Below, piece by piece: positions 21,548-63,710 of a DNA stretch of 64,000 nt (position 1 is the first letter of the stretch; the number at the start of each line of letters is the position of its first letter). The translations under genes and the position numbers were made by a program. Origin of the DNA: an uncultured archaeon. GTDB lineage: Archaea > Halobacteriota > Archaeoglobi > Archaeoglobales > Archaeoglobaceae. The stretch covers positions 1,615 to 65,614 of the forward strand of contig CAYYFC010000001.1 of NCBI GenBank assembly GCA_964471215.1, written 5' to 3'. Below the pieces are notes generated by a model that did not search any database, had not been told where the DNA came from, and saw nothing but the letters and a program-made list of their open reading frames with translations.

Positions 21548-21756
21548 AACCCTACATAATTTCCAGACAATTTAAAGTTTAGGGTTTTTAAAATATGAGA
21601 AATATATATTTTTATTTTTTTATTAATGTGCTACAGGATTAGTCGATCTCAAATGGTATCGTAGTTTTTTATCTTAAACATGTATATGAGAAATTTTAGA
21701 TAATTTTTTGGACTATTCACAGATTAGAATTAGAGATATTTAAGGAGCTATGCAAA

Positions 21757-21765
21757 TTTTTAAAT
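21757..21765 (+). promoter_or_regulatory. TATA-like box (TTTTAAATA) about 25 nt upstream of structured-RNA candidate copy A
   Basis: This AT-rich octamer matches the archaeal TATA consensus. Its spacing to the first conserved block (GCCATCAG at 21785) is about 24-27 nt. An equivalent box occurs at the same spacing in copy B. Confidence 0.45.
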
Positions 21766-21781
21766 ACCTTTTCAATTTAGA

Positions 21782-21938
21782 GGGGCCATCAGCTCATAAG
21801 ACGGCGTTACATTTAAGGCTGGTTACGTGGTGCCAGCCAACTTAGCTCTATGTGAAGTGCTGATTCATGAAGCACTAAGGGAGAAGCCCGTGCAAGCTTC
21901 TAAAATATCTATAGTTGATAATGCACGGACAACCACGT
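21782..21938 (+). ncRNA. Candidate structured small RNA, copy A (class unknown)
   Basis: The segment is locally GC-rich in a 0.7-kb AT-rich spacer. It forms stems GCCATC/GACGGC, GGCTGG/CCAGCC (21817-21838), AGTGCT/AGCACT (21856-21876) and CCGTGCA/TGCACGG (21888-21928). The 3' ACCACGT (21932-21938) is complementary to loop ACGTGGT (21826-21832). A paralog at 52316-52478 shows compensatory stem changes. Confidence 0.55.
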
Positions 21939-22264
21939 GTACTCTCTGGCATATAAACAATCCTCCATCAATGTATACTCCATCTCATGCATATTTGAAG
22001 ACATGTGTAAATAATTTTATAGAATTTATTTGTATATATTATAATCTAATATATTTTTAAGTCCTCTGATGTATGAAAAATTCGAGAATGTATTGATAAG
22101 ATAGCATGAATTGTGCGAATAATGATGCTTAGAGTTTTTAAACCAATATATTATCGAAGGAGTTTTTTACTCATAAAAATGTTTCTGTAAAAATAGAAGG
22201 ATCCCATTATGAGATGAGAATCCCTTGATCGAATGATTTATTAATTCTAAGGACTATTATCACT

Positions 22265-23011
22265 ATGATGAAACTAGAGAGATGTCAAACAGGGATCCCG
22301 GGATTTGACGAGCTGTGCGAAGGAGGATTGATAAGGGATAGGAGTTATCTCCTGTCCGGTGTATCTGGAAGTGGAAAGACCATATTCGCCTTACAGTTCT
22401 TAGTTGAAGGAGCATTAAAGTTTAAGGAACCGGGAATATTCATAGCAACAGAAGAAAGACCTCAGCACATAAGAGAGCACGCATGGTCTTTTGGATGGGA
22501 ACTCGAAAGACTTGAGGATGAAAACATGCTTGCAATAGTCGATGCCACTTCGACAAAAATAGGTTTGCCCAGTGATGAGAAGTACGTGGACATAAGACCA
22601 TTCGACACTCGCTCATTACTCGATCAGATAATAAATATACAGGATGAAATCGGTGCCAGAAGAGCTGTTCTGGACTCAACGACATCTATTGGATTTGCAA
22701 TCAACGATATCTCGAAGTTCAGAGTTGAGCTATTAAAAATATCAACAACTATGGAAGTACTCGGACTAACATCGATTTTAACATGCGAAATAGTTGAGGG
22801 AGAGCATGCATATTCGAGGTTTGGCGTCGAAAACTTCGTCACGGAGGGTACGATAGTTCTATATTACACAAGGGCAGAGAATGTCAGAGTTAGGAGCTTA
22901 GAAATTATAAAGATGAGGGGAACAAATCACAGTAAGAAGATACATCCATTCGAGATAACAAGCAACGGAATAATTGTTCACGCAAAGGAGGAGATATATC
23001 CAGGTTTTTGA
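22265..23011 (+). CDS. Single-domain KaiC/RadA-like RecA-superfamily ATPase
   Basis: 248 aa. It has TGIPGFDELCEGGL, Walker A SGVSGSGKTIFALQF, Walker B-like AVLDS and a C-terminal LEIIKMRGTNHS motif typical of KaiC-like proteins. A TATA-like TTTATTAATT lies about 25 nt upstream of the ATG, so the transcript may be leaderless. Confidence 0.8.
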   Translation: MMKLERCQTGIPGFDELCEGGLIRDRSYLLSGVSGSGKTIFALQFLVEGALKFKEPGIFIATEERPQHIREHAWSFGWELERLEDENMLAIVDATSTKIGLPSDEKYVDIRPFDTRSLLDQIINIQDEIGARRAVLDSTTSIGFAINDISKFRVELLKISTTMEVLGLTSILTCEIVEGEHAYSRFGVENFVTEGTIVLYYTRAENVRVRSLEIIKMRGTNHSKKIHPFEITSNGIIVHAKEEIYPGF

Positions 23012-51336: not shown

Positions 51337-51813
51337 CTAAGATGATTTGAATATATCAAACAGCACTATCCTCTCCCTAATTAAAAGTGGCAGTTTTCCT
51401 ATACCGACTATCCTCAACTCCTCATCGCTTATATCAAAGAACTCCTTTATTCTTTCAATTTTCTTATCGTCAATTTTCAAAACCTTTTTTTCTTTAAACC
51501 CCAACTCCTTTAAACTTTCAAGACACTCGTCGTCGAGCAAAACAGCTACTATTTCATTCCTCCCACTCTTAGGTCCTATCTTTATGGCCTCATTTATCTG
51601 TCTTCTTGCCGCAACGTATAGTAAGATCTCCATTACCAATGTTCTCGCCACTCTTCTGTTCTCATTCCAAGCTTTTATAGCTTTCTTAACAGCAAATTCA
51701 ACATGATCTATATCCACAACGTAATTTGCATCTATTAAAACGACGTTACAGTTTAACCTCTTAAGAAAATCGCTTACAGATTTTATCTCAATCTCTCCCT
51801 CAACTATTCTCAT
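51337..51813 (-). CDS. cgi121: KEOPS complex subunit Cgi121
   Basis: 158 aa. VVLIDANYVVDIDHVEFAVKKAIKAW..RVARTLVMEILLYVAARRQI is typical of archaeal Cgi121. Confidence 0.7.
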   Translation of the reverse strand: MRIVEGEIEIKSVSDFLKRLNCNVVLIDANYVVDIDHVEFAVKKAIKAWNENRRVARTLVMEILLYVAARRQINEAIKIGPKSGRNEIVAVLLDDECLESLKELGFKEKKVLKIDDKKIERIKEFFDISDEELRIVGIGKLPLLIRERIVLFDIFKSS

Positions 51814-52287
51814 ATGACCCTCATAAGTGCCTCCATCTTTATACTTCTATCGGTTAAATCGTATCTGAGCATTGCTTTTGGGACTAGTCCTCTTTTCAGC
51901 TTTACGACTTTTAATCTCCTCTGGATTTCATTTTCAGTTTCATGTATGTCCAGTTCTATTACACAGTCGGCTATTGCCTTTATTATATTTTTTAATTAGT
52001 TATCCTTTTGACATCATGGTTAGAACTACGGAATCCGTTCTCTTCACATTCATGGATATGTCCCTGAGAACATCGATTATTTCCATATAATCATAGTCGA
52101 ATACAAGGGTGTTCAAGCTGTTTATTATAGCCCTATCGAAGTCATCATCCATGATCCTTAACCTTATAAACCTTAAAGGGTCGTGCTTTGTCTTTCTCAA
52201 AACCGATCTTATGTCTCCTTTACCATTTTTGGACTATTCACTTGTTTGAGTATTTGAGTGATTTTGGAAACTATGGGAACTTAAAAC

Positions 52288-52296
52288 TAATATAAA
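52288..52296 (+). promoter_or_regulatory. TATA-like box (TAATATAAA) about 25 nt upstream of structured-RNA candidate copy B
   Basis: It has the same spacing to the conserved GCCATCAG block (52320) as in copy A. Confidence 0.45.
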
Positions 52297-52315
52297 CTAC
52301 TCACATACTTACTTT

Positions 52316-52478
52316 GGATGCCATCAGGCTTTGCCGATGACGGTGTAATCCCGTAACCCGTACCCTGTGGTGTGCGGGGATGTAGCTCCCAATGAACCAC
52401 CGATGGAGATGAGGTGGCTGAGGGAAAAGCCCGTGCAAGTTCCTATAACTTAAATACCAGATAATGCACGGGCGACCA
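52316..52478 (+). ncRNA. Candidate structured small RNA, copy B (class unknown), located inside and antisense to the KaiC-like pseudogene
   Basis: It has the conserved blocks GCCATCAG, GACGGTGTAA, CTGAGGGAAAAGCCCGTGCAAG and GATAATGCACGGGCGACCAC. Its stems are CCCGTA/TGCGGG (52357-52378), CCACC/GGTGG (52397-52417) and GCCCGTGCA/TGCACGGGC. The stems covary with copy A. Confidence 0.55.
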
Positions 52479-52745
52479 CTCATGAGATCTATTATATCTA
52501 TCTTGTTGAATTCTTCCTTCAATTCAAAATAAACCTTTATGTTCTGAATTAAATGCTCCTTTGTATCGTCATACTTCCAGTGCGAAATGGAAAGGAAAAA
52601 ACGTCTGCTCTAGCTCCTGGTCCCTCAAGTAGGAGAACAAGGCTACCAGCTGGAAAACTCCATCCAACTGGGAATCAAGGGCAGTAATCCCGGTTTTAAA
52701 TTTTTTCATTAAAAGTTATTAAAACGTTTCTCTCAAATAAATGAT

Positions 52746-53066
52746 ATGTTGAAGTTTGATGAAGAAGGACTTATTCCGGTAATAGTTCAGGATATAAAAA
52801 CGAAGGAAGTGCTTATGCTTGCCTATGCAAACAGAGAAGCCTTAAAAAAGACATTTGAAACTGGATATGCGCATTACTGGAGCAGAAGTAGAAAGAAGAT
52901 ATGGATGAAGGGCGAAACATCCGGGAATGTTCAAAGAGTTATCGATATAAGAGTTGACTGCGATAACGATGCGATTTTGTATTTAGTTGAACAGAAAGGC
53001 GTAGCATGTCATACCGGGAATTACAGCTGTTTTTACAGAAAATTGGATAAGAATATGCTGGAATGA
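52746..53066 (+). CDS. hisI: Phosphoribosyl-AMP cyclohydrolase
   Basis: 106 aa with [35 protein letters not shown] and CDNDAILY, the classic HisI motifs. Confidence 0.92.
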
Positions 53067-56935: not shown

Positions 56936-57070
56936 TGGGGCCGGTGGGATTTGAACCCACGACCAGCGGGTCTCTTCGGTCAGAGCTCCAACGGGTCATC
57001 ACATCTCAGGAGACCCGTCTCTCATCACACCGCTGGAGCCCGCCGCGCTTCCTGGCTGCGCCACGACCCC
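56936..57070 (-). tRNA. tRNA-Trp (anticodon CCA) interrupted by a 61-nt intron at the canonical 37/38 position
   Basis: Exon 1 (57070-57033) reads GGGGTCGTGGCGCAGCCAGGAAGCGCGGCGGGCTCCAG. Exon 2 (56971-56936) reads ACCCGCTGGTCGTGGGTTCAAATCCCACCGGCCCCA. Once the intron is removed the cloverleaf is regular. Confidence 0.9.
56972..57032 (-). ncRNA. Box C/D guide RNA carried within the tRNA-Trp intron
   Basis: The intron reads CGG-TGTGATGA(C)-GAGACGGGTCTC-CTGA(D')-GA-TGTGATGA(C')-CCCGTTGGAGCT-CTGA(D)-CCGAAGAG. Both spacers are 12 nt. They are complementary to the tRNA's own anticodon-arm sequences (GAGACCCG, and GCTCCAGCGG with one G-U pair). Confidence 0.85.
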
Positions 57071-63369: not shown

Positions 63370-63710
63370 TGTATGCGGGTGATAAGAGCAATGTTTCAAG
63401 CCCGCTAGGCATACTCTAGATCTGACCTCCCCCTGCCTTAAGGGGCGGAGGTTCCCCATAGGGGAACATGCTCGCATCTGCCTCACGGCAGGTCATTGCC
63501 TTCGGTTTGTGTCATCAGGTTATGTCAAAGCAAACCTCTACAACATTTTCAATATAATTATGACACGAACATATCTCCTATCCCCCTAATTCATCTCCGC
63601 CCCAAAGCTTCCTTAGCGACGGTTGTGAGCCTTGTGCCGCTGGGTTCGAACGCCACCCATGACCCTATGGGATGAGCCGTAAGGCAACTCTCTAGGCGAG
63701 GTGATCCTAT
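63370..63710. other. Locally GC-rich, hairpin-dense non-coding island (candidate structured RNA or RNAs, or a decayed element); strand and class undetermined
   Basis: No ORF of 60 aa or more occurs between 63081 and 64000. Several stems stand out against AT-rich flanks. These include GCGGG/CCCGC (63375-63405), ACCTCC/GGAGGT (63425-63452) and TTCCCC-ATA-GGGGAA (63452-63466). Also present are CTGCC-TCAC-GGCAG (63478-63491), GCC-GTAA-GGC (63676-63685), and the 9-nt long-range complement GGGGCGGAG (63442-63450) / CTCCGCCCC (63595-63603). Confidence 0.3.

Follow-up and report, generated by a model that had tools for sequence, protein, structure and literature searches.

A dispersed, protein-less element with a structured RNA lies within a decayed KaiC-like gene of an uncultured Archaeoglobaceae archaeon

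Introduction

Small mobile elements that encode no protein of their own are known among the IS200/IS605 insertion sequences (IS), and some of them carry guide RNAs. The element described here, element X, was found in a stretch of 64,000 nucleotides from an uncultured archaeon of the Archaeoglobaceae (GenBank assembly GCA_964471215.1, contig CAYYFC010000001.1, positions 1,615 to 65,614 of the forward strand), referred to below as the window. One of its two copies in the window splits a KaiC-like gene that lies upstream of Cgi121, a subunit of KEOPS.

The palindrome-associated transposable elements (PATEs) are protein-less derivatives of IS200/IS605 elements (PMC3119063; PMC10055086). They "often encode omegaRNAs", which are necessarily used in trans (PMC10055086). 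In the omegaRNA of ISDra2 a pseudoknot strand at nt -6 to -2, beside the guide, pairs with about -103 to -105, and such a pseudoknot is a conserved feature of every Cas12 guide RNA (PMC10097598). Elements of the IS607 family have unrelated termini, an imperfect inverted repeat at unequal distances from the ends, short direct repeats and no target duplication, and commonly carry tnpB (PMC6188088). The TldR proteins are domesticated TnpB-like repressors with guide-RNA genes of their own (PMC10705468).

Results

The interrupted KaiC-like gene

The KaiC-like gene of the window was compared to the same locus in related genomes. In sister Archaeoglobus loci (L003, GCA_054039955.1; L004; and L005 to L008, which are A. 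profundus-like) an intact KaiC-like gene of 230-232 aa is found with HisI and Cgi121 on either side. The window belongs to an Archaeoglobus, and its FBPase falls in the same 90%-identity cluster as that of A. profundus. The KaiC-like stop and the Cgi121 start overlap by 4 nt in L003, and the stop of the C-terminal part overlaps the Cgi121 start codon in the window. The two coding pieces of the window are parted by a GC-rich insert of ~250 bp on the plus strand, antisense to the gene. The reading runs ...IDIIDLM, then the insert, then KNGKGDIRSV..., with no obvious loss at the junction, which falls in a stretch of variable length among the orthologs. Removal of 247 bp restores the frame at the junction and removal of 248 bp does not, a test weakened by the further frameshifts elsewhere in the gene.

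The conceptual protein joined across the insert is a full-length match to the Pfam KaiC family PF06745, with residues 5-214 aligned to positions 2-226 of a model of 231 (E=6e-10; 39.3 bits, cut-off 26.6). It aligned colinearly to ten intact homologs of 230-247 aa with a coverage of 99-100% and an identity of 39-48%, and the N- and C-terminal fragments were colinear with one and the same ortholog. PF06745 and PF23442 are both present in the ten intact homologs. Four frame changes were located in the pseudogene by frame-aware tblastn, near 52660, 52585, 52575 and 52003, together with a premature in-frame TAA near 52003. About ten codons are lost after FHFALE and about four near 52003. An independent metagenome assembly (L001) was 99.995% identical to the window, with one mismatch in 20,477 nt, so the defects of the pseudogene are not errors peculiar to one assembly. 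Since intact syntenic orthologs exist, the two parts are colinear with one ortholog and L001 agrees, it is almost certain that a small mobile element entered the KaiC-like gene upstream of Cgi121 and that the gene then decayed.

A first-pass annotation of the window, made from its letters alone, had described two KaiC-like coding pieces of one gene split by an antisense RNA element, with at least three frame changes and an internal stop. This description agrees with the end-to-end Pfam match of the joined protein, the single ortholog shared by both fragments, the defects given above and the uninterrupted gene between HisI and Cgi121 in sister Archaeoglobus. Its statement that essentially no residues are missing holds at the insertion point but not at the two places where codons are lost. 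The comparator it had used, an intact paralog at 22265-23011, had no significant similarity by tblastn and shares only the Pfam family; the syntenic orthologs are the true comparators. It had also attributed the missing P-loop lysine to decay. No Walker A motif GxxxxGK[ST] is present in the pseudogene or in any of the ten intact orthologs, which have PGAGAE or PGTGGE instead. Because all ten intact orthologs lack GK[ST], the P-loop without GK is ancestral to the orthogroup and not a product of decay.

The Walker A lysine is absent (PGAGAE) from the whole KaiC-like orthogroup upstream of Cgi121 (window 51810-52709; P0001-P0010; L003 750-1906). To judge from the P-loop sequences, the orthogroup is an ancestrally degenerate and probably non-catalytic branch. 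The pattern suggests a conserved, probably non-catalytic partner of Cgi121. Expression of Cgi121 in the window must now take place without an intact upstream gene.

Copies and distribution of element X

The two window copies are alike over 21705-21937 on the side of copy 1, and, as had been noted at first, the similarity stops directly after ACCAC. The window has exactly two occurrences of the 16-mer TTTTTGGACTATTCAC, with a chance expectation of 0.04. A pattern drawn from the blocks conserved between the copies (TAGCTC-N4-TGAA-N40-70-TGCACGGNCNANCAC) was used to scan for the family. One locus (L009) was matched among 185,579 species genomes, in a metagenome-assembled genome (MAG) of Thermoprotei labelled Thermoprotei or Thermoproteales in two NCBI records. 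Nine loci were matched in metagenomes, among them a GC-rich chance match (L013) and a locus with the same sequence as L009 (L010). X was thereby found in 11 copies at 10 distinct sites, 8 of them beyond the window, and the family occurs in the window, five vent metagenomes and the Thermoprotei MAG.

Every true copy starts with GACTATTC(R)C..., ends with ...ATGCACGGRCRAYCAC and has unrelated flanks on both sides, the boundaries being set by a family alignment of 10 copies. The copies are 220-250 bp long. No open reading frame (ORF) is contained in any of them, and no target-site duplication is visible at any of them. Copy 2 is 89% identical to L015 and 75% identical to L009. Copy 1 is 96% identical to L011, which is at a different site, and the two window copies are 63% identical to each other. 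Each window copy is thus closer to a relative elsewhere than to the other window copy. The same ends are found at non-orthologous sites and empty sites are found in relatives, as is generally the case for transposable elements. X is a dispersed family of protein-less elements in several hyperthermophilic archaea, including a Thermoprotei MAG, and its suspected mobility is borne out by these copies at unrelated sites in other genomes.

Copy 1 lies in the divergent spacer between the FBPase gene and a KaiC-like gene. This spacer is 60 bp long in A. profundus DSM 5631 and 717 bp long in the window (21548-22264), so copy 1 is likewise an insertion. Copy 1 occupies 226 bp of the spacer, and the other ~490 bp are AT-rich and matchless among the sequences compared.

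L014 (5329-5558) and L017 (829-1063) have a common right flank and different left flanks, each with its own internal deletion. Two X copies lie tail to tail in L018 (1030-1257), with 58 bp between them. L015 (4714-4952) has the 5' strand of RNA stem S2 from one subfamily and the 3' strand from another, with the break inside the stem, and in its sequence looks like a recombinant between two subfamilies. Such patterns suggest that recombination has taken place both at X copies and between them.

The ends of element X

The two ends are unrelated to each other over their outermost 16-20 nt. An imperfect inverted repeat of 22-33 nt has one arm near the left end (about +17 to +50) and the other in the large loop of the final RNA hairpin, at about -20 to -42 counted from the right end. 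It measures 13 nt + 11 nt in copy 2, 22 nt in copy 1 (82% complementary), 22 nt in L009 (86%), 21 nt in L012 (76%) and 12 nt in L018 (100%), so that the design is common to these copies while its sequence differs by subfamily. The first reading had seen no terminal inverted repeats, which is true of the outermost bases but overlooks this subterminal repeat. The mismatches in copy 1 include transitions and transversions, and the repeat therefore points to a candidate protein-binding site at the DNA level and not to an RNA helix. Short direct repeats are present at the left end (TGGAAAC/TGGGAAC, imperfect, in copy 2; ATTAGA twice in copy 1). The family alignment shows no conserved hairpin at the left end. 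At the right end stem S4 stops 6 nt before the terminus.

The 5' flanks of the copies are TTTTG (twice), CCATA, TTGAA, ACAGA, TCATA, GTTAA, AAGTG, GTAAA and TTAAA. GG is found at the left junction in 3 of the 10 (copy 1, copy 2 and L017), and the right end is always ...CAC. TTTTTG is common to both window copies (21705-21710 and 52226-52231), outside the left boundary defined by the family. It had been reported as TTTTTGG before both copies and as a possible target; TTTTTG does precede both, but it is not family-wide, and the other copies share at most the final R-G. L011, the closest relative of copy 1, has a different left terminus (GACTACTCA). The common TTTTTG could be due to local gene conversion or to a preference for T-rich targets.

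The RNA domain of element X

The right-hand part of X contains a GC-rich structured RNA domain. A TATA-like box is found ~27 nt upstream of the first structured RNA base. Covariation was assessed on a covariance-model alignment of 11 full copies (A5). In this alignment 89.4% of cells are paired, compared to 34-50% when the partners are slid. Double changes occur at ten pairs, and the observed covariation score was reached in 0 of 500 shuffles. S2 occurs as five different helices, all of which pair, and S3 occurs as CCACC/GGUGG or GUGCU/AGCAC. Covariation, assessed also on a MAFFT version of the alignment, supports S2 and S3. In S4 the 3' strand is invariant and the 5' strand drifts. The pseudoknot GUGGU/ACCAC is paired in 98% of cells, with one-sided variation (G-C to G.U twice, one A.C).

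The sole difference between the window and L001 over the 20,477 nt compared is T/C at 52344, which changes the closing pair of S1 from G.U to G-C. Rfam searches at gathering and E-value thresholds gave only noise (sR10 at 13 bits, snoR86 and MIR478). The RNA was assigned to the plus strand because of the promoter-like box, the orientation of the GA motifs and the analogy with the TnpB element L020 described below.

TnpB loci related to the comparison

BLAST located the 3' two-thirds of the X RNA in L005 to L008, where they immediately follow the C-terminal end of a TnpB remnant (...HCENCGFESDRDIVGSWNI...), and relatives of the L005 remnant contain PF07282. TnpB loci of the same family are L019, L020 (GCA_001315845.1), L021, L023 and L025. 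Conservation of the TnpB-linked RNA extends no further than ...CAGAACGG (alignment A6 of L019, L020, L023 and L025). The TnpB scaffold is ~100 nt long. Its long-range helix, CCGUUC/GAACGG, lies directly against the flank, and within this helix are a hairpin with a GAUGA loop and a second, long hairpin. Covariation supports this structure strongly, with 93% of cells paired and double changes at 10 pairs. The X sequence in L005 begins exactly at the end of the TnpB scaffold and lacks the 5' strand of S2. X RNA as the omegaRNA of the L005 TnpB was rejected, as TnpB scaffolds end with ...CAGAACGG, the Fe-ADH frame of L020 resumes at that point and L005 is without the 5' strand of S2. The GACGGC of X resembles AAGGGC, the flank of L020 on the side of the target-adjacent motif (TAM).

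L020 (2291-3742, BBBB01000004.1) is a full-length TnpB-only IS in an iron-type alcohol dehydrogenase (Fe-ADH) gene, with homopolymer frameshifts and an upstream ORF of 55 aa. The Fe-ADH frame resumes immediately past the scaffold end (..SVLKKG, IS, DVKYNVVTPPEIAPDVAILDP), and the boundaries of the IS can be placed to within 1 nt via this host reading frame. An inverted repeat between its left end and last hairpin (CGTAACTTTTGT / ACAAAAGTTACG) is 12 nt long, 100% complementary and located at +22 and -15 from the ends.

X and TnpB RNAs have a common order of parts. On the 5' side a pairing strand in or beside a hairpin loop is followed by a linker, a GA-motif hairpin and GGGAAG/GGGAAAAG. On the 3' side a long hairpin with an A-rich loop is followed by 1-2 nt, a pairing strand of 5-6 nt and the boundary.

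On the minus strand of L005 (11939-12247) the TnpB remnant and RNA scaffold abut the 3' two-thirds of X, and all four of the four assemblies break inside tnpB. These breaks suggest a multi-copy IS in that A. profundus-like population. Relatives of the L005 TnpB C-terminus were 86 proteins (P0012-P0098) from Thermococcales, Bathyarchaeia, Asgard, Korarchaeota and Thermofilum. All are fragments of 48-192 aa, with no full-length partner among them. In this TnpB lineage intact genes seem to be fewer than truncated or frameshifted copies, unless the short lengths come from splitting by gene callers. L011 (4152-5250) has a TnpB-like ORF of 346 aa with a frameshifted C-terminus, truncated against thrC. 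It lies 3.9 kb from an X of the copy 1 type on the same 33-kb metagenome contig.

Table 1. Coordinates of the KaiC-like pseudogene, the two X copies, their parts and the flanking genes in the window
Feature	Position	Strand	Remarks
KaiC-like pseudogene, N-terminal part (MKKFKTGITALDSQLDG.. ..YDDTKEHLIQNIKVYFELKEEFNKIDIIDLM)	52480..52709	-	3 frame changes, ~10-codon deletion
KaiC-like pseudogene, C-terminal part (KNGKGDIRSV.. ..LRYDLTDRSIKMEALMRVI)	51810..52231	-	1 frame change, TAA near 52003
Element X copy 2, 248 bp, protein-less	52232..52479	+	Boundaries from family alignment; inside KaiC-like gene, antisense
X left end: conserved terminus GACTATTCACTTGTTTGAGTA, left inverted-repeat arms 52250-52262 and 52272-52282	52232..52282	+	Repeat search, family alignment
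TATA-like box ATATAAA, putative internal archaeal promoter	52290..52296	+	A/T-rich octamer, same alignment columns in all copies
Putative structured RNA gene, ~160 nt, GC-rich	52320..52479	+	Covariation
S1 (GCCAUCA/UGACGGY)	52320-52326 / 52338-52344	+	
S2	52357-52363 / 52372-52378	+	GUGGU in loop, 52367-52371
S3, kink-turn (K-turn)-like hairpin ((A/G)UGAA ... CUGA/CUAA)	52397-52401 / 52413-52417	+	Within outer helix ~52386-52426
S4, 9-bp stem, 27-nt loop	52429-52437 / 52465-52473	+	
Right arms of subterminal inverted repeat	52437..52457	+	Inside 27-nt loop of S4
3' pseudoknot strand ACCAC	52475-52479	+	Complementary to S2 loop GUGGU
Right flank (TCATGAGATCTATTATATCT)	52480..52499	+	Antisense to KaiC-like N-terminal fragment; guide segment only if omegaRNA-like
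Element X copy 1, 226 bp, other subfamily	21711..21936	+	Divergent spacer of FBPase and KaiC paralog
TATA-like box, copy 1	21757-21766	+	Equivalent position
Cgi121 (KEOPS subunit), downstream synteny anchor	51337..51813	-	Pfam PF08617; same neighbour in L003, L005-L008
HisI (PRA-CH), upstream synteny anchor	52746..53066	+	Same neighbour in sister loci

Discussion

A possible guide RNA used in trans

The explanation preferred here is that X is mobile and that its RNA is a guide RNA used in trans; taken as a whole it is given slightly better than an even chance. The X RNA would be transcribed from the TATA-like box within the element and would continue past the right end. ACCAC, the five bases with which the element closes, would pair with the GUGGU of the S2 loop, with the K-turn-like hairpin and the long hairpin between the two strands. 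This would be the topology of a TnpB/Cas12 guide-RNA scaffold, and the bases past the pseudoknot would be the guide. X would accordingly be a guide-RNA-only, PATE-like element, moved by a transposase encoded elsewhere for which an IS607-type serine TnpA and an IS605-type Y1 TnpA are candidates. A nuclease of the TnpB type, likewise provided in trans, would take up the X RNA and be guided by the right flank to empty sites; cutting these would help the element to be retained. The target of copy 2 would then read ...TTTTTG(G) up to the insertion point and TCATGAGATCTATTATAT after it. The 3' flanks of X, taken as guides, had no second match within the window. Judged by architecture alone, the mechanism with the best support is that the X RNA serves in trans as a guide scaffold of the TnpB type, and it stands at about an even chance.

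X resembles the PATEs in being short, protein-less and multi-copy, in having no target-site duplication and in carrying a structured RNA at its right end that stops at the element boundary. Both transposase and nuclease would be needed in trans. It differs from them in that no full-length IS with the same ends was found and in having no conserved left-end hairpin, no clear TAM of 4-5 nt, inverted repeats between its two ends and an apparent archaeal promoter of its own in place of processing from the tnpB mRNA.

X is also like the TnpB omegaRNA or right-end element RNA (ISDra2; L019, L020, L023 and L025) in several respects. The scaffold of ~100-115 nt occupies the right end, and the final 5-6 nt ahead of the flank form the 3' strand of a pseudoknot or long-range helix. 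Each scaffold has a GA-motif hairpin in its interior and a long hairpin at its terminus. The pseudoknot strands of X are at -5 to -1 and about -113 to -109, a geometry that matches the ISDra2 omegaRNA. Similarity ends after CAC in all copies and every 3' flank is different, as in a TnpB omegaRNA. Unlike the TnpB RNAs, X has no tnpB ORF overlapping or adjacent and has an extra 5' hairpin, S1. No sequence or covariance-model homology between them was detected, and there is no Rfam match. As with the TldR guide RNAs, an omegaRNA-like gene would stand outside an active tnpB transposon. Those RNAs adjoin tldR and are non-mobile, whereas X is found at dispersed sites, ends like a transposon and adjoins no protein gene.

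X has neither target-site duplications nor terminal inverted repeats, as is characteristic of IS200/IS605 elements, although subterminal repeats exist. All four end features described for the IS607 family are also seen in X. It differs from that family in that the GG core is absent from the right end (CAC) and is found at only 3/10 left junctions, and in that no serine tnpA was found in the window. In structure the ends of X appear to resemble IS607 at least as much as IS605, with membership in either not demonstrated. The first-pass annotation had likened X to IS200/IS605-type elements with a TnpB-type scaffold. The architecture fits that comparison, but the ends are at least as IS607-like, no partner gene was found and no homology to a TnpB-linked RNA was detected. 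X is best filed as a new family in the known class of protein-less, guide-RNA-bearing derivatives of IS605/IS607 type.

Several results count against a guide RNA used in trans. The 64-kb window was searched for tnpB, serine tnpA and Y1 tnpA genes by tblastn, for which the queries were five TnpB proteins, the serine TnpA of L021 and an IS608 TnpA, and by Pfam searches of ten ORFs of 390-498 aa, which span the usual size of TnpB; none of the three was found. This is in line with the first observation that the window has no tnpA or tnpB. The L021 serine TnpA also gave no tblastn match in the X-bearing loci. Searches of the 185,579 species genomes and of metagenomes, viral, plasmid and phage sets by exact patterns or BLAST, from which diverged relatives could escape, yielded no full-length IS bearing the ends of X. 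Viral contigs were without a match to the right-end and left-end patterns, as were plasmids and phages by BLAST. No conserved TAM of 4-5 nt was found 5' of the left end, where only a purine is shared, or R-G if the first G belongs to the flank.

The comparisons at the level of the RNA count in the same direction. The X covariance model (R1) scored at best 8.7 bits against the TnpB loci with filters off, which is no detectable homology, and the TnpB-RNA model (R2) did not match X in the window. Local alignment of the X ends to those of L020, L025, L023 and L019, with shuffles, was not significant; the best z was 3, for X S3 against the GAUGA hairpin. L005 is the only locus at which X follows a tnpB remnant, and its sequence is most simply read as an X copy into which a TnpB IS has inserted, directly behind the GACGGC of X. 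Compensatory change is absent from the pseudoknot, which thus appears conserved rather than proven. The strand was discriminated neither by wobble counts (12 G.U, 13 A.C) nor by folding (minus strand -59.9 kcal/mol, z = -3.5; plus strand -54.2 kcal/mol, z = -2.25).

Alternative explanations

The strongest rival, though on balance unlikely, is that X is a mobile element like a miniature inverted-repeat transposable element whose structured RNA is not a nuclease guide. The RNA might be a regulatory or antisense small RNA (sRNA), a structural RNA bound by L7Ae, or an RNA or single-stranded DNA structure for the transposition of X itself, with the pseudoknot merely stabilizing the 3' end. Mobility and RNA structure are both shown, yet no nuclease partner was found, and the covariance models find no homology to TnpB RNAs. 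The K-turn-like UGA/UGA and GAUGA read as generic archaeal L7Ae sites, in keeping with the weak sR10 match. The invariant 3' strand and drifting 5' strand of S4 suggest a constraint at the DNA level from end recognition. However, four covarying helices would hardly be maintained in a selfish element of 250 bp if the RNA were of no use to it. The same RNA is found at different sites (copy 1 and L011), so the information on the site must come from the flank, and the position of the pseudoknot relative to the boundary matches the TnpB/Cas12 scaffolds.

A further layer can be placed on the guide-RNA explanation and is considered quite unlikely. X could be a self-promoted, omegaRNA-like and autonomous-looking "guide-RNA parasite" that crosses archaeal phyla without a cognate nuclease gene. 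It would hijack the TnpB of an unrelated IS or work with a not yet recognised RNA-guided protein. X would itself be a target of TnpB elements, as in L005, where the TnpB IS stands exactly after GACGGC.

It is highly improbable that the minus strand encodes the functional RNA, in which case the variable flank would come first, as an IscB/IsrB-type 5' guide, and the ends of the element would be swapped. The minus strand folds at least as well as the plus strand, the wobble counts show no strand bias, and the helices and pseudoknot are all strand-symmetric. Against this, a TATA-like box stands at a fixed distance upstream on the plus strand, and the GA-type K-turn motifs and A-rich linkers are correct only on that strand. 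In the TnpB IS L020, which has the same end design, the RNA strand runs from the left end to the right end. No HEARO/IscB-type match was obtained from Rfam and no iscB gene was seen.

The last alternative, also raised in the first-pass annotation, is that ordinary recombination, without any transposition, placed a duplicate of a host sRNA gene in a gene that was dispensable. Only two copies lie within the window, and the 6 nt TTTTTG common to both outside the left boundary could reflect local recombination or gene conversion, but this explanation has a minimal chance and is already contradicted by the distribution of copies: the same sharp-ended unit is found at 8 further unrelated sites, one in another phylum, the window copies are 63% identical with closer relatives elsewhere (89% and 96%), and the inverted and direct repeats are typical of transposon ends. 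A bridge RNA of the IS110 kind was rejected, since the conserved X RNA cannot encode the target when identical RNAs occupy different sites.

Other features of the window

An RNA of the HgcC family (Rfam RF00062) was predicted at 63409-63538 on the minus strand with 50.0 bits, exactly at the gathering threshold. HgcC is a GC-rich non-coding RNA typical of AT-rich hyperthermophiles. A tRNA gene is present at 56936-57070 on the minus strand, and its intron holds a box C/D sRNA (Rfam sR3, 56978-57032, 59 bits). A box C/D sRNA in a tRNA intron is a known intron-encoded guide arrangement of archaeal tRNA.

Significance

The locus is a clean, datable inactivation of a gene in Archaeoglobus by a mini-transposon putatively of the guide-RNA type, in a gene that is co-operonic with the KEOPS subunit Cgi121. 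X also adds a previously uncatalogued archaeal family of RNA and element, with sharp ends, a structure supported by covariation and a cross-phylum distribution. The concept of such elements is known; what is new is the family, its apparent promoter, its spread across phyla and the possible nesting of a TnpB element within X.

Should the X RNA be a guide scaffold, its partner would be a thermostable RNA-guided nuclease with a scaffold of only ~115-160 nt, and omegaRNA genes would be able to gain a promoter of their own and travel without tnpB. Should it not be one, the family would be an unexplained structured RNA carried by a transposon. The parasite reading, if true, would mean a second layer of parasitism and conflict among the RNA-guided mobile elements of hyperthermophiles.

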